Virus record (IMG/VR): IMGVR_UViG_3300020047_008974
DNA length: 35,437 nucleotides
Strand: one strand, 5' to 3'
From: a virus
Shown: positions 6,313 to 11,888 of the stretch, piece by piece
How positions within the stretch are numbered: the first letter of the stretch is position 1
Layout of the letters: each line of letters starts with the position of its first letter
Translations under genes and position numbers: made by a program
The notes under the pieces: generated by a model
Databases searched by the model: none
The model's input: only the letters and a program-made list of their open reading frames with translations
Told to the model about the DNA's origin: nothing

Positions 6313-6473
6313 ATATTTTCTGAAAACTCCGCTTCAGCAAGTGAACGATCACGATCGTCAGCTTCCTCTCGGCGTTTTTCATAAGTTAAATATTCCTCCT
6401 CTGCTTGATCAATATCAAACCCTACCTCTTCATTTGGAAATGAATCCAAGTATGCATCTGTTGTTAAACTCAT
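6309..6473 (-). CDS. Small acidic protein (54 aa, below the track cutoff)
   Basis: Hand translation: MSLTTDAYLDSFPNEEVGFDIDQAEEEYLTYEKRREEADDRDRSLAEAEFSENI. TAAtATG junction upstream and ATGA overlap downstream. Confidence 0.55.
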   Translation of the reverse strand: MSLTTDAYLDSFPNEEVGFDIDQAEEEYLTYEKRREEADDRDRSLAEAEFSENI

Positions 6474-6474
6474 A

Positions 6475-6660
6475 TTATTTGGTGAAAAAATGGATAATAT
6501 AATCCTGTCCGATAAACAAGAATAATGTTGTAATTATTAATAAAAATAATAAAATACATTTTAATATTCCAGTATCAAATGGTTTACTTTCCCAACTCAT
6601 AATTTCCTCTGGCCATTTAGCTTTACGATCCTTAATTCCGTCAAAGTTAGTTTTTTTCAT
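6475..6660 (-). CDS. Small membrane protein, first gene of the leftward operon
   Basis: 61 aa with one hydrophobic helix (ILKCILLFLLIITTLFLFIG). Confidence 0.55.
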   Translation of the reverse strand: MKKTNFDGIKDRKAKWPEEIMSWESKPFDTGILKCILLFLLIITTLFLFIGQDYIIHFFTK

Positions 6661-6731
6661 AAATAAATTAATCTATACATTAATCGATACTATGATAAGG
6701 GGAAGTGACTAGCCAACCCATATCTACTACA

Positions 6732-6760
6732 ATTATAGCAAGGGGGTAGTTATTATGCAA
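6732..6760 (-). promoter_or_regulatory. Candidate sigma70-type promoter for the leftward operon
   Basis: The minus strand reads TTGCAT (6760-6755), a 17-nt spacer, then TGC-TATAAT (6740-6732), about 70 nt upstream of ATG 6660. Confidence 0.5.
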
Positions 6761-6948
6761 CTAGACTATAACAAAGATTCGTGCTATTTCGATGTCCAGG
6801 ATTTGCACAAAAAAAGAGAGAATAGTATTATCACAAGTATACCCAATAGGGTACTTGCTGGGGCGAATTAAGATTAGCAAGTAAAGCATAAATCTTATAG
6901 GGCAGTTAGGTTGAAACGTAAATCAACCGGGGCGATGGTAAATCGATA

Positions 6949-7038
6949 ACTGCTCTCCCACTCTCAAGTAACGAACTTAATAAGTTTTTATAAATTTGCT
7001 TATTAAGCTCAACAGTTACTGGGGGGTGGGGGGGCTGT
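6949..7038 (+). ncRNA. Candidate structured RNA element: long imperfect hairpin closed by pyrimidine tract / G-tract pairing
   Basis: Pairings are 6953-6965 with 7022-7034 (13 pairs, 4 of them G.U), 6967-6972 with 7015-7020, and 6976-6984 with 6999-7007. The G.U pairs work only on the + strand. Confidence 0.3.
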
Positions 7039-7090
7039 CAAAAAGGGGCTCAAGTAAATAAATAACTTATAGAACTGCATTATTGAATTT

Positions 7091-7131
7091 GTATTACTGT
7101 ATTAGGATTGTATTAGGTATTAAATGTATAA
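7091..7131. repeat. Iteron-like array of GTATTA(GG) direct repeats
   Basis: Copies begin at 7091, 7099, 7110, 7117 and 7126 (the last is the degenerate GTATAA). TGTATTAGG occurs twice. The array is followed by TTATCCGCA (7132-7140) and the + promoter. Confidence 0.5.
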
Positions 7132-7149
7132 TTATCCGCAGGAAAATAT

Positions 7150-7178
7150 TTGACAAATAAAATTAATGGGAATATTAT
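7150..7178 (+). promoter_or_regulatory. Candidate sigma70-type promoter
   Basis: TTGACA 7150-7155, exactly 17-nt spacer, TATTAT 7173-7178. Confidence 0.5.
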
Positions 7179-7184
7179 TGAAAC

Positions 7185-7272
7185 AGGTAGATTTCGATTC
7201 CCCGTCGACCTACCCGCTCCAAAAGAGCTCATAAACCCTATTGCATTAAAGACACCACTGTGTGTCTTTTTT
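7185..7272 (+). ncRNA. Candidate ~85-90-nt small RNA, or a terminated leader
   Basis: Bounded by the promoter above and the terminator at 7250-7272. Predicted hairpins are 7186-7214 (GGTAG/CTACC plus TCGA/TCGA) and 7216-7228. No ORF. Confidence 0.35.
7250..7272 (+). terminator. Intrinsic terminator
   Basis: AGACAC 7250-7255 / GTGTCT 7262-7267, 6-nt loop, T-run to 7272. Confidence 0.6.
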
Positions 7273-7296
7273 GTTTGTTGTATCTTTTTTGTTATG

Positions 7297-7305
7297 TGCT
7301 ACTAT
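7297..7305 (+). promoter_or_regulatory. Candidate extended -10 box (TGCTACTAT) placing the start site on the ATG of the next gene
   Basis: The hexamer ends at 7305 and ATG 7312 is 7 nt downstream, implying a leaderless mRNA. Confidence 0.3.
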
Positions 7306-7311
7306 TAAATT

Positions 7312-8610
7312 ATGAGTAAACTTAAACTAAAATGGCATACAGAGCAGAGAATTATCAATGACCTTATCCCTTTTGATCAGAACCCTCGTAAAATGACTGA
7401 GGATCAGGCCAAACAATTAACAAAATCAATAGAGGAATTCGATATTGTAGAAATTCCCGCAATTGATTTAGATAATATTTTAGTAGCAGGTCACCAACGA
7501 ATGCGAGTAATGCAATTACTAGGACGTGGAGGTGAAACAACAGACGTACGTGTACCAAATAGAAAATTAACACCTAAAGAATTCAAGGATTACAACGTAC
7601 GATCCAATAAGAATGTAGGTATGTGGGATGATGAATTACTAGCAGGATTATTTGATGAGCAGGAACTCCGTGATTTAGGCTTCAGTGACCTAGAATTGGG
7701 CCTATTAGACTTCAATAACCCTAAAGAGGAGGATGACGACGTAGTACCAGATTTACCTGAAAATGAACCAATTTCAAAGCTTGGTGACTTGTATGAATTA
7801 CCAGGAGGTCACCGGATACTATGTGGTGACTCAACCAGTAAAGAGGATGTGGAGAAATTAATGGATGGAGAAAAAGCCGACCTAGTATTTACGGATCCGC
7901 CTTACAACGTAGATTACTCAGGAACAGGGAAAAATACTAAAGAGGGTATATTAAACGACAATATGAGCCGAGAAGAATTTAATACATTCTTAGGTGAAGT
8001 ATTCAAAAGATACTCAGAAGTAACAAAAGAAACAGCAGCCTGGTATGTATTCCACTCTCCAAAGACTCAAGACCAATTCAAGAACGAAATAAACAAAACC
8101 GACTGGAAAGTAAAAAACCAGATAATATGGAACAAACCAAACGCAGGTATGGGAATGAATGAATACCGACAAAAACACGAACCAATGTTCTATTGTGGTA
8201 CTGATAGTGTAAAATTCTATGGTGATCGTACAGGAACTACTGTGTTGGACTTCCACAAAGAAATAGATGACTTAGTTAAATGGGCAAAAACAGTACAAAA
8301 TGCCGATAGAAATGGAAAAACGACTATATGGACTATGAAACGAGAGCCAGTAGGAGATTACGTACACCCAACACAGAAGCCTGTTGAACTTATAGAATAT
8401 GTAATACGCAATTCAAGTAAACCCGGAGATTTAGTATTGGACTTATTTATGGGATCAGGCGCAACTTTGATTGCTGCAGGTAAAAAAGGACGTGTAGCCT
8501 ACGGTATGGAGCTCGATCCAAAGTACGTGGATGTTGTTATAGGACGTTACTGCAACTACACTTGCAACGATAAGATCATAAAGAATGGCGAGGAAATAAC
8601 CTGGCAATAG
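7312..8610 (+). CDS. ParB-like nuclease domain fused to an N6-adenine/N4-cytosine DNA methyltransferase
   Basis: The N-terminus has a ParB-type DLIPFDQNPR...VAGHQR pattern. The C-terminal half has TDPPYN (motif IV) followed later by DLFMGSGAT (FxGxG, motif I), which is the beta-class order. Confidence 0.8.
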   Translation: MSKLKLKWHTEQRIINDLIPFDQNPRKMTEDQAKQLTKSIEEFDIVEIPAIDLDNILVAGHQRMRVMQLLGRGGETTDVRVPNRKLTPKEFKDYNVRSNKNVGMWDDELLAGLFDEQELRDLGFSDLELGLLDFNNPKEEDDDVVPDLPENEPISKLGDLYELPGGHRILCGDSTSKEDVEKLMDGEKADLVFTDPPYNVDYSGTGKNTKEGILNDNMSREEFNTFLGEVFKRYSEVTKETAAWYVFHSPKTQDQFKNEINKTDWKVKNQIIWNKPNAGMGMNEYRQKHEPMFYCGTDSVKFYGDRTGTTVLDFHKEIDDLVKWAKTVQNADRNGKTTIWTMKREPVGDYVHPTQKPVELIEYVIRNSSKPGDLVLDLFMGSGATLIAAGKKGRVAYGMELDPKYVDVVIGRYCNYTCNDKIIKNGEEITWQ

Positions 8611-8611
8611 T

Positions 8612-8956
8612 ATGAGAAAAATACCAGATGATCTGAGAACAGAGATGGCAAACGATCCGTACTATAAAAAATGCGCCTTAACTGGTATTACTGATGGAAA
8701 GATAGACTGGCATCACAACTTGACCTATGCCGGCCGTCAGGTTAATGAAAAATGGTGTATAATACCCTTATCAAAACCAATCCACGATAGAATAGACTAC
8801 TACAAAGATAAAGTGGACTGGATTATGCTCAATAGGGCAACAGATGATGAACTAGTAGCCTACAGCAAGGCAATAGACTTAATAGCTAAAAGAAACCGAC
8901 TTAATAAACTATATGGCGAAACATTTAGAGAAAGAGATACAACTAGCTATTTGTAA
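8612..8956 (+). CDS. Hypothetical protein, possibly HNH/His-Me-finger-like
   Basis: C..TG....IDWHHN...IPLSKPIHDRI is loosely HNH-like, but the Cys ligand set is incomplete. Confidence 0.55.
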   Translation: MRKIPDDLRTEMANDPYYKKCALTGITDGKIDWHHNLTYAGRQVNEKWCIIPLSKPIHDRIDYYKDKVDWIMLNRATDDELVAYSKAIDLIAKRNRLNKLYGETFRERDTTSYL

Positions 8957-9227
8957 TTATTTAGAATATAAAAGGTATTTCTTTTGGCGGCAAAACACCA
9001 CACCAATATTCGATAAAGACCATTTCAGATCAATGCCCAAGTATTCCATAAACGGTGTCCCTGATATTATTCTCATAAAGGACGGTATATTCTGGGGTTT
9101 GGAAGTGAAGCAACCTAAAGGAAAACAAAGCGAAAATCAGAAAATATTCGAGTATAAGACAAAAAAAGCAGGTGGTAAGTATAATATAGTGACTAGCCTA
9201 GACGATATTATTGCTCTAGGACTATAA
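8913..9227 (+). CDS. VRR-NUC domain nuclease
   Basis: GVPDIILIKDGIFWGLEVKQPKGKQSENQ matches the PD-(D/E)xK core of VRR-NUC. The start has the ctatATGGC context. Confidence 0.7.
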   Translation: MAKHLEKEIQLAICNYLEYKRYFFWRQNTTPIFDKDHFRSMPKYSINGVPDIILIKDGIFWGLEVKQPKGKQSENQKIFEYKTKKAGGKYNIVTSLDDIIALGL

Positions 9228-9231
9228 AAGC

Positions 9232-9253
9232 AGGCAAGGTACTTGCTTTTTTT
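9232..9253 (+). terminator. Intrinsic terminator
   Basis: GCAAG 9234-9238 / CTTGC 9242-9246, followed by T7 at 9247-9253. Confidence 0.55.
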
Positions 9254-9305
9254 AGTACCCAGGTGTATTATTTAGGTGTTTATTAGTAATTAATATAAAA
9301 AATAT

Positions 9306-9740: not shown

Positions 9741-11252
9741 ATGGCAAAACAAGTATTATTCGGACGTGATGCAAAAGATAAGATCAAGGTAGGTATTGAT
9801 ACTGTTTGTAAAGCAATCCGTACCACGATCGGTCCAAAAGGACGTAATGCATTTATAGATGACCAGATGCAACCAAAACTAACCAATGATGGTAAAACAA
9901 TAGCAATGTCTATTGAATTATCTGACAAGTTAGAAAATATGGGTGCTTGGTTAGTTAAAAACTCGTCCAGTCAAACAGATGACGATGCAGGAGATGGAAC
10001 ATCAACCACATCAGTACTACTGAAAGCAATTATTGATGAAGCTCAGAAACGACCAGAGAGTCCAATGGATATTAAACGCTCATTGATTAAAACAGGTGAA
10101 CAGGTAAAAAAGTACATTAAGGAAGCATCACAACCAATTAAAGACAACCAGATAGCAGATATTGCTACCATTTCTGCTGAATCAAGAGAATTAGGTGACT
10201 TGATAGCTAAGATTATAAAAGAATCAGGTAAAAACAAACCAATCAATATCGAGGATAACTCAGAGCCTGTTATTGATTATGAGATCAGTAAAGGATTAGA
10301 AACAAACGTAGGATTTGCACATCACGCATTTATTAACAACGCCCGGAACGGAACTTGTGAACTGGAAAACGTGGCAGTGTTTGCAACTGATAGACGTATC
10401 TCAAGCCTACCGGACTTAATGACATTACTTAGATTATTGGAGGTTAATAAAATAACCGACTTGATCCTATTGGTAAGTGACATTGAAAACTCAGTATTAG
10501 GAAGTCTAGTACAATCAAAGGCAGCTGGTATGTTTAACTCTTTAGTGATCCGAGCAAGAAACGCAGAACTGGAGGATATGGTAGCTATGACAGGTGCAAC
10601 TCTTGTATCAGAACTAACCGGCCTTAAGTTTAGTGACGTGAAACTGGAACATTTGGGTAGGGTTAAAAAAATTGTTGCTAGCGATAAGAAAACACTAATT
10701 ATCAATGAGTCACCGGCAGCAAAAGAAAAAGAGGATACACTTAGAGCATTAGCTGACAACACTAAAAACATTTATGAAAAGAAATTCCTAAATGATCGAG
10801 CTGATAAGTTATCAGGAGGTGTGGTAGTCATAAAAGTAGGTGCGCACGTTGATTCAGAACGAATTTACCAGAAGTATAAGATAGAGGATGCAGTGAACGC
10901 TACAAAATCCGCCCTGGAGGAGGGAATTGTAGAGGGAGGAGGTATGTGCTTCTATCGAATCTCTAATAAGTTCAAAGGTAATTCAATCGGTGAATCTATC
11001 CTACGCAACGCACTAAAGGAACCATTGAAAGCTATTATTGAAAATTGTGACGAGGATTACTCAGCTATTGTTAAACGATTACCAAATAAAAAAGGATATG
11101 ATGCCTCATCAGGTAAAGCAGTAGATATGATCAAGGCAGGTATTATTGATCCAGCCCGGGTAACCAGATCAGCATTTCAAAACGCATTAGAAACAGCTGC
11201 AACCTATATAACAATGGAGGTAGCTATTTCAGATATTAATGAAACCAAATAA
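9741..11252 (+). CDS. groEL: GroEL-like group I chaperonin (503 aa, shorter than cellular GroEL)
   Basis: AKQVLFGRDA..., TIGPKGRN, DDAGDGTSTTSVL (ATP-site GDGTTT-like), EEGIVEGGG and GIIDPARVTRSAFQNA align by eye with E. coli GroEL landmarks. No GGM tail. Confidence 0.9.
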   Translation: MAKQVLFGRDAKDKIKVGIDTVCKAIRTTIGPKGRNAFIDDQMQPKLTNDGKTIAMSIELSDKLENMGAWLVKNSSSQTDDDAGDGTSTTSVLLKAIIDEAQKRPESPMDIKRSLIKTGEQVKKYIKEASQPIKDNQIADIATISAESRELGDLIAKIIKESGKNKPINIEDNSEPVIDYEISKGLETNVGFAHHAFINNARNGTCELENVAVFATDRRISSLPDLMTLLRLLEVNKITDLILLVSDIENSVLGSLVQSKAAGMFNSLVIRARNAELEDMVAMTGATLVSELTGLKFSDVKLEHLGRVKKIVASDKKTLIINESPAAKEKEDTLRALADNTKNIYEKKFLNDRADKLSGGVVVIKVGAHVDSERIYQKYKIEDAVNATKSALEEGIVEGGGMCFYRISNKFKGNSIGESILRNALKEPLKAIIENCDEDYSAIVKRLPNKKGYDASSGKAVDMIKAGIIDPARVTRSAFQNALETAATYITMEVAISDINETK

Positions 11253-11862: not shown

Positions 11863-11888
11863 CCCCCTATTGCTAGGGGGTTTCCTTG
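11863..11888. terminator. Bidirectional intrinsic terminator
   Basis: CCCCCTA 11863-11869 / TAGGGGG 11874-11880 with loop TTGC. A7 lies upstream and TTTCCTTG downstream. Confidence 0.65.

Follow-up and report, generated by a model that had tools for sequence, protein, structure and literature searches.

The 35,437-nucleotide (nt) window analysed here, from virus record IMGVR_UViG_3300020047_008974 of IMG/VR, carries on its + strand a hairpin at 6949-7038 that pairs a pyrimidine tract with a G tract. Comparison with related loci makes it very probable that this hairpin is the 3' stem of an uncatalogued, strand-specific family of structured non-coding RNAs, transcribed rightward from a predicted promoter, P1. 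The pattern of changes points just as strongly to selection on one strand, under which the G arm would be held nearly fixed and its partner need only stay pyrimidine and match a UA interruption. The overall confidence of roughly 0.45 is a blend of a high value for the RNA family and a low one for a mechanism in which it serves a phage origin through an R-loop.

The hairpin lies in a gap of 651 nt (6661-7311) between the leftward and rightward operons, in which no open reading frame (ORF) exceeds 52 amino acids. The original prediction described it pair by pair, and both a reading of the sequence and RNAfold return the same structure. CTCTCCCACTCTC (6953-6965) pairs with 7022-7034 of GGGGGGTGGGGGGG over 13 uninterrupted pairs, of which 4 are G.U. 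The stem goes on inward with AGTAAC (6967-6972) and GTTACT (7015-7020), then with a 9-bp repeat, CTTAATAAG (6976-6984) and CTTATTAAG (6999-7007), and outward with pairs 6952-7035, 6950-7037 and 6949-7038, this outer part including a T x T mismatch at 6951 x 7036. The tract is G-rich as claimed, but it is not a run of 14 G: positions 7021-7034, some 185 nt past P1, read G6-T-G7, with a single T among 13 G. The G6-N-G6 tract is unique in the window, as four exact or near-exact pattern matches all overlap the hairpin site and the other two matches carry 2 mismatches each. Against shuffled sequences RNAfold gives -43.9 kcal/mol for the + strand (z = -8.49, 0 of 200 shuffles equal) and a weaker -31.2 kcal/mol for the - strand (z = -6.51). 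Also supported is the suggestion of a larger folded RNA, a few hundred nt long, that includes the hairpin, since the hairpin is the 3' domain of an RNA of about 200-230 nt. Two smaller hairpins noticed just upstream proved to be real, conserved and covarying in relatives, that at 6852-6859/6876-6883 being helix 1 of a pseudoknot and that at 6909-6914/6923-6928 a hairpin termed P4.

Related loci, designated by L and a number, were sought with the adjacent ParB-methyltransferase gene (7312-8610) as bait, its graded homologues leading to syntenic loci on their own contigs. Methyltransferase protein identity was 99% for L081, 84% for L082, 76% for L083-L086, 75% for L091, 74% for L089/L090 and 67-80% for L304-L307. 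Pattern scans for further copies, with the G arm in viral contigs and metagenomes and with the pseudoknot motif CTGGGGGGTTTAAC, added loci in AT-rich phage contigs (L103, L105/L139, L125, L145, L180, L224, L243, L250, L257, L266, L269 and L275). The family counts about 16 diverged full members and 3 variants, from phage and metagenome contigs. No match was returned by a search of cultured-phage DNA with the gap or by an exact 23-nt G-arm search in IMG/VR, and a scan of a genome collection for the G arm plus CTCAA gave chance or G+C-rich matches and a Nostocales repeat, with no prophage copy. As a synteny marker, the 80 ParB-methylase loci of IMG/VR were rejected, the gene being too promiscuous and none of the loci having the tract upstream. 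The large terminase of the window is only 24-28% identical to those of Bacillus and Geobacillus phages and therefore gives no clue to the host.

Identity between the window and L082 reaches 93.5% in the block 6854-7067 and 96.7% in the hairpin, against 80.6% in the methyltransferase gene (DNA) and 41-52% in the flanks. The intergenic DNA of L089 (+ strand), L083 (- strand) and L091 (- strand) is unalignable, yet in each a pyrimidine tract pairs with GGGGGGTAGGGGGGCTGT or a near variant. The RNA is absent from L306. The parts of the element in the window, with their counterparts where these help to define them, are as follows.

6803..6831, + strand: promoter P1, sigma-70-type, TTGCAC (6803-6808), 17 nt, TATTAT (6826-6831); predicted RNA start at about 6838
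6840..6853, + strand: 5'-terminal stem-loop, TACCC (6840-6844) with GGGTA (6849-6853), present in the minimum free energy (MFE) fold
6854..6896, + strand: H-type pseudoknot, helix 1 being CTTGCT (6854-6859) with AGCAAG (6876-6881), extendable to 8 bp at the positions given above
6860-6869, + strand: G-rich loop of the pseudoknot, GGGGCGAATT
6870-6875 / 6891-6896, + strand: pseudoknot helix 2, AAGATT with AATCTT
6897..6903, + strand: junction ATAGGGC, the same in the window, L082, L243 and L145, and also in L275
6909..6928, + strand: hairpin P4, GGTTGA with TCAACC around an A-rich loop
6929..6951, + strand: first copy of a direct repeat (family D1), GGGGCGATGGTAAATCGATAACT, with 74% identity to the second
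6949..7038, + strand: pyrimidine-tract/G-tract stem, of which the basal part (6949-6966/7021-7038) is conserved in the family
7045..7072, + strand: tail, in which repeat copy 2 (7045-7067) holds the family motif CTCAA

P1 lies 12-15 nt upstream of the first pseudoknot helix, its -35 and -10 boxes conserved and its spacer free to vary. Five of the 6 differences between the window and L081 fall inside the 17-nt spacer, with its length unchanged and the boxes the same, and L082 reads TTGCAC-17-TAAAAT. A consensus scan also lists the overlapping variants TTTGCA (6802, 18-nt spacer) and TGCACA (6804, 16-nt spacer), both ending at 6831 and scoring 9/12 each. The 5' stem-loop is ATTCC/GGAAT at the same place in L082, changed on both sides. 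A variant junction, CAGGGC, is found in L089 and L125. A long-range helix of the MFE fold (6855-6864/7048-7057) was set aside as it is not conserved in L243 or L145. Within the tail, 7051-7072 resembles 6878-6900, the pseudoknot's 3' half. Most members (the window, L243, L145, L257, L269, L125, L266 and L275) have direct repeats of 12-23 nt on either side of the stem; these differ between members and match within each, and in 8 of 17 none of 300 shuffles equals them. Alternative pairing, a bound factor or an insertion footprint are possible causes.

Strand specificity, as originally claimed for the element, is borne out across the family: the sense strand folds far better than its complement in 17 of 17 related hairpins (for example -29.9 versus -8.6 and -24.2 versus -1.5 kcal/mol), and the minus-strand folds of the window and related hairpins are weaker by 10-23 kcal/mol. 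Basal-stem pairs in the related hairpins number 132 G-C, 99 G.U and 97 A-U, so that about 30% (99/328) are G.U, with C and U nearly equal in number as partners of the G arm. The register of the stem is kept as well. In a MAFFT alignment (A4) of the natural hairpins 90.3% of cells pair, versus 56-67% when the partner is slid by 1-3 columns, and the covariation score of the stem exceeds that of all 500 shuffles. The G arm, GGGGGG-T(A/G)-GGGGGG-CTGT, is nearly invariant and the opposite arm drifts between C and U. Variation in the stem is mostly one-sided (C to U, U to C) because the G arm is almost invariant; in L082, for instance, C6965 has become T and a G.U pair is retained, on the + strand only. 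Conservation of the G arm is in part a product of the search design, but it extends beyond that, because the arm is also present in members found via the pseudoknot motif alone (L103, L105, L125, L139 and L180) or via protein synteny (L083, L089 and L091). In every member the basal stem is 18-21 bp long. The apical extension (6967-7020) is confined to the lineage of the window, L081 and L082, other members having other inserts, and its 6-bp and 9-bp repeats (6967-6984/6999-7020) are perfect Watson-Crick palindromes on both strands; for both reasons it is uninformative as to strand.

The original prediction proposed a search of related genomes for compensatory changes, and these are present both in the pseudoknot helices and at the interruption of the tract, which reads UA/UA in most members, CA/UG in the window and UU/AA in L180. 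Over 16 members 100% of the cells of both pseudoknot helices are paired, each position shows 2-4 pair types, and none of 2000 strand shuffles does as well; for this count the helix strands were delimited by hand because MAFFT alignments over both subfamilies put gaps inside helix 2. In L082 helix 2 reads AGAGTT/AACTCT, compensated on both sides relative to the window. Subfamily B has the pseudoknot loop GGGGGGTTTAAC and, as forms of helix 2, ACAGG/CCTGT, ACTGG/CCAGT, ACAGT/ACTGT, ACAGA/TCTGT, ACAAG/CTTGT, AGAGA/TCTCT and AGGCA/TGCCT. From six members of this subfamily RNAalifold recovered helix 2 and P4 independently, with helix 2 possibly extending into GGUU/AACC. P4 stands at the same place in relatives as GTGTC/GACAC, GTGGA/TCCAC, GTCGC/GCGAC and GTCAC/GTGGC, and 2 of its 5 pairs are changed on both sides in the RNAalifold result. 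One architecture holds in 16 of 16 full members: H-type pseudoknot, junction, P4, pyrimidine/G-tract stem and ACUCAA tail. On these comparisons, the upstream domain is classed as an H-type pseudoknot, with two interleaved helices that are each supported by covariation.

Some related sequences depart from this pattern. The variants L091 and L304 carry GGGGGAGGGGGG followed by AGAG or TCGT. At the corresponding place ahead of its leftward operon (875-915), L307 (67% identical methylase) has a hairpin of Watson-Crick pairs throughout, CTGTTCTCCCTA/TAGGGAGAACAG, and no pseudoknot; the hairpin may be derived from the stem by replacement of G.U pairs with A-U. A cyanobacterial intergenic sequence (L282, L299, L302 and L303; Nostoc, Calothrix and Tolypothrix) ends in TTTGGGGTGGGGGGGCTGT(C/T)ACCTCAATTAAATC, matching the G arm and CTCAA; it is probably unrelated to the RNA family, as no pseudoknot or pyrimidine arm was seen in it.

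That the element is an RNA and not a cruciform was argued at the outset from its G.U pairs. In the basal stem these become C x A on the other strand, which excludes a cruciform or double-strand palindrome; the covarying pseudoknot and the promoter upstream point the same way. More broadly, an element acting as DNA, whether cruciform, palindromic protein-binding site or hairpin of the single-stranded + strand (an ssi- or sso-like priming signal), is very improbable. The palindromic apical repeats and the Watson-Crick version in L307 would suit such an element, and G.T pairs are tolerated in DNA hairpins, the non-template strand having the sequence of the RNA; what doubt remains about the RNA comes from this identity, since sequence cannot separate an RNA from the same non-template strand. 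The family-conserved basal stem is nevertheless about 30% G.U, the interleaved pseudoknot helices covary just downstream of a promoter, as expected of a transcript, and the apical palindrome is missing from other members. Next to no weight can be given to a plain intrinsic terminator or to a hairpin arisen by chance. The position of so strong a stem-loop between operons might suggest the former, but no U tract follows the stem (its 3' flank is CUGUCAAAAAGGGG), the stem is unlisted in the terminator scan, its z is -8.5 and it is conserved in register over about 16 diverged phages.

The window gave 0 matches to Rfam 15 at the gathering threshold. At E<=10 over 6400-7500 there were only sub-threshold look-alikes of microRNA precursors (generic long hairpins), at 26 bits versus a threshold of 84, and the sixteen member loci gave only tRNAs. 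ARAGORN found 0 tRNA or tmRNA genes in the window. A literature search for the motif or a described family returned only a coincidence with conserved sequence block 2 (CSB-2, CSB II) of mitochondria.

In every member the RNA points the same way as the genes after it, and those genes are unrelated. It heads the rightward operon in the window and L089 and the leftward operon in L083 and L091. No protein family is shared among the RNA-bearing loci outside the one bait phage group. Genes for a chaperonin, terminase and other structural proteins are present in the window, but no replication protein can be recognised. A portable module carried by phages with no common proteins nearby probably engages some conserved machinery of the host, for instance RNA polymerase, DnaA with the replisome, or an RNase.

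Among such roles, one at the phage control or origin region, in which the RNA works through the host machinery and an R-loop at the G tract activates or primes replication, is put forward tentatively, as the leading one of several weak candidates. Action through the host is made probable by the absence of a protein partner, the portability of the module and its association with DnaA boxes. In this mechanism, transcription across the G6-N-G6/7 tract would produce a G-rich RNA that could stay hybridised to the C-rich template as an R-loop, and the R-loop would activate or prime replication. In the free RNA a weak hairpin, rich in G.U, would be formed by the pyrimidine arm with the G tract; alternatively, that arm would fold the displaced non-template strand. 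Which outcome prevails would depend on the fold imposed by the pseudoknot domain. Sequences resembling DnaA boxes, TTATC[C/A]AC[A/T], are about 10-fold denser near the RNA (650 nt upstream to 250 nt downstream of the 3' end of the stem) than elsewhere in the same loci, at 19 in 16.8 kb versus 17 in 159 kb, the motif having been defined after examples were seen and the comparison being with the rest of the same loci and not with other intergenic regions. The enrichment concerns 14 of 19 family loci, mostly just upstream of the RNA promoter, and perfect TTATCCACA sites in the zone number about 7, against about 0.13 expected. The origin role also draws on the position of the element at a divergent promoter region that is the cumulative GC-skew minimum, on the 23%-G+C stretch with conserved direct repeats after it, on the flip of its orientation between the divergent operons of related phages and on the lack of a replication protein in the window. 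The G arm GGGGGGTAGGGGGG is complementary to CCCCCCTACCCCCC, which is the CSB-2 motif of vertebrate mitochondria; the G-rich transcript of that motif forms a priming R-loop or G-quadruplex (PMC3488243). A more specific proposal is doubtful: that the element is the phage counterpart of CSB II and ColE1 RNA II, a transcript made by the host polymerase from a DnaA-box-flanked promoter, whose G6-UA-G6 tract would switch between a G.U-rich hairpin and an R-loop or RNA-DNA G-quadruplex and so license or prime replication, making it a portable, protein-independent origin module of unrelated phages. Perfect or near-perfect DnaA boxes, TTATCCACA or TTATCAACA and often in pairs or triplets, occur shortly before the RNA promoter, 100-400 nt upstream of the stem, in L266, L269, L257, L224, L275, L307, L145, L243 and L250.

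Several points weigh against an origin function, beginning with the limits of the DnaA-box comparison just given. No DnaA box lies near the element in the window or in L082; the best DnaA-like site of the window, TTATCCGCA (7132-7140), has one mismatch, and near-matches over the whole window are fewer than in shuffles. The GC-skew minimum is equally explained by the switch of coding strand, and the resemblance to CSB II may be coincidental. The G tract is paired in a conserved hairpin, which would compete with R-loop formation, and neither ColE1 RNA II nor CSB II has a partner arm such as the co-evolving pyrimidine arm with which the G tract pairs here. In several members an ORF begins 30-90 nt past the stem, so that the RNA there is also an mRNA leader. 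The intrinsic terminator right after the RNA in L243 fits a discrete RNA gene equally well.

Other roles for a promoter-proximal structured RNA have to be weighed beside this origin function. In cis, the nascent RNA could bind host RNA polymerase and allow terminators to be read through, as do the antitermination or anti-pausing RNAs HK022 put, B. subtilis EAR and plasmid conAn2. The RNA follows its promoter directly, as putL does (PMC9378689), is always co-oriented with downstream genes and would require no conserved phage protein; put itself acts without a dedicated one. In put the first stem forms a triplex and the second is long (PMC9378689). RNA antiterminators known to date have structure and are G+C-rich in part, conAn2 needing a G+C-rich segment and a stem-loop (PMC8191782). 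Terminators to be read through exist, at 7248-7269, 9232-9248 and 11864-11880 of the + strand in the rightward operon before the terminase genes, and in L243 the order is RNA, terminator, ORF. What makes antitermination doubtful is that the operon after the RNA in L139 has fewer terminator-like sites than shuffled sequence, that in subfamily B a terminator-like hairpin with a U run lies upstream of the RNA and not downstream, and that the window, L082, L089 and L145 have a separate strong promoter between RNA and genes, whose transcripts therefore never carry the RNA. No sequence similarity to put was found, and EAR, which is in Rfam, gave no match. In trans, a discrete stable RNA might sequester a host factor, possibly a defence or regulatory protein, with the G.U-rich stem as a protective or processing structure at the 3' end, for example a site at which ribonuclease III (RNase III) would release it from the downstream mRNA. 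At 18-21 bp the basal stem is of the size of RNase III substrates, which have about 20 bp or more of double-stranded RNA, and would be a candidate for cleavage. In L243 the RNA has a promoter and an intrinsic terminator to itself, the window RNA resembles stable RNAs in its 5'-terminal stem-loop and long 3' stem, the conserved G-rich single-stranded loops could serve as a binding surface, and the module is portable, without a linked protein and free in orientation relative to its neighbours. Yet most members lack a terminator after the RNA, processing gives no reason for a nearly invariant G arm, the DnaA boxes are left unexplained and there is no candidate partner, so that sequestration too is a rather unlikely role.

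A riboswitch or self-cleaving ribozyme in an operon leader, with the G-rich junctions as ligand pocket or active site and the flanking repeats as alternative pairings, is improbable. Many phage intergenic ribozymes have unassigned roles. Such an RNA would account for a pseudoknot whose unpaired nucleotides are strongly conserved (GGGGCGAAUU or GGGGGGUUUAAC, and AUAGGGC) and for stem-flanking repeats that could pair alternately with one partner. A riboswitch is expected before genes of common function, however, and the first downstream ORFs are unrelated across members; there is no conserved expression platform, the long-range helix of the window is not kept in other members and no Rfam riboswitch or ribozyme class was matched.

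Around the RNA, the control region of the window contains further signals.

6760-6732, - strand: leftward operon promoter, TTGCAT (6760-6755), 17 nt, TATAAT (6737-6732), conserved in L082 and L089
7150-7178, + strand: promoter P2, near-consensus TTGACA-17-TATTAT
7248-7269, + strand: intrinsic terminator just before the methyltransferase gene

The leftward promoter overlaps the apparent ribosome site and start codon of a 38-amino-acid ORF (6755-6871) that was first taken as a conserved small gene, being in frame in L082, and is absent in other members. This was rejected because its start lies in the leftward -35 box and its middle is P1, whose fixed 17-nt spacer explains the lack of indels, and the ORF is probably not a gene. 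Directly before the first leftward gene, at 6663-6690, stands a 12-nt tandem repeat, ATACATTAATCG x 2.3, which L082 shares unchanged and which is possibly an operator within the leftward leader.

Rightward, the stem is followed by an A+T-rich stretch (7050-7149, 23% G+C), P2, a short leader, the intrinsic terminator and the methyltransferase gene. Three direct repeats of TGTATTA (7090, 7098 and 7109; within 7090-7115) are kept in L082 with varying bases between them, and look like operator or iteron sites. In the P2 leader, about 85 nt long, the helix GGTAG/CTACC (7186-7190/7210-7214) encloses the helix TCGAT/GTCGA (7194-7198/7204-7208), and the loop is rich in C. The helices covary in L082 (TTGAC/GTCAA), and in L081 a change of A7208 to G gives a G.U pair. 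Pairing is conceivable between this loop (C4 in the window, C6 in L089) and its G-rich counterpart in the upstream RNA (G4 and G6, respectively). A tRNA-like 3' end suspected near 7186-7222 (GCUCCA) was rejected, ARAGORN being negative and a T arm lacking. The layout of P2, leader and terminator recalls lambda PR'-6S RNA-tR'. Farther along, the terminators at 9232-9248 and 11863-11880, the second of them bidirectional, split the operon into methylase/nuclease, chaperonin and terminase/structural blocks. The chaperonin, of GroEL/Cpn60 type, is at 9741-11252 (Pfam E = 2e-44) and is found also in L082, L083, L089, L091, L306 and L307.

Signals elsewhere in the family vary. L243, L250 and L266 have a -10-like ATGATATAC(T/A) about 15 nt before the pseudoknot, and the terminator of L243 lies about 45 nt past the stem. 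In subfamily B (L083, L103, L105, L125, L224 and L304) the promoter is 100-150 nt upstream. There, and in L091, a 5' domain of about 100 nt ends in a terminator-like helix and UUUUUUGUUU, 5-15 nt before the pseudoknot, the helix often pairing a CU-rich tract (CUCCUCC) with a G run. The RNA of subfamily B would be made only via read-through. An array of 19 tRNA genes (Rfam matches) occupies 11891-14471 of L266, and L250 has two at 8713-9297.

If real, this is a new and well supported RNA family, with textbook covariation in its pseudoknot and an unusual stem with a fixed G-rich arm. It would offer a concrete handle on how small phages without recognisable replication genes start early transcription or replication, and could enter RNA databases and improve annotation of the "ORF-free" control regions of phages. 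An R-loop mechanism, if true, would link the priming mechanisms of phages, plasmids and mitochondria.

Like ColE1 RNA II and the mitochondrial transcript from the light-strand promoter (LSP) to CSB II, the element combines a promoter, a structured untranslated RNA, a tract of G runs on the non-template strand downstream of that promoter and an adjoining A+T-rich stretch. It differs in having no sequence homology to them beyond the G tract and a hybrid that is only proposed, and in that the polymerase would be the multi-subunit host enzyme and not a T7-like one. With put it shares a folded, promoter-proximal position, but put, with two stem-loops in about 70 nt, is about a third as long as the present RNA of about 200 nt, which folds into a pseudoknot and three hairpins. 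The RNase III processing hairpins of the T7 early region and the lambda N leader likewise separate the opening gene of an early operon from the leader by a long irregular stem of double-stranded RNA, but they have no invariant G tract and no attached pseudoknot domain. In standing, the family resembles the orphan structured RNAs associated with phages, among them Rfam metagenome motifs, ROOL and GOLLD, which are likewise known only from covarying phage and metagenome sequences with function unassigned; compared with ROOL and GOLLD this RNA is much smaller, and its hallmark is the near-invariant G6-UA-G6 arm in a G.U-rich stem.

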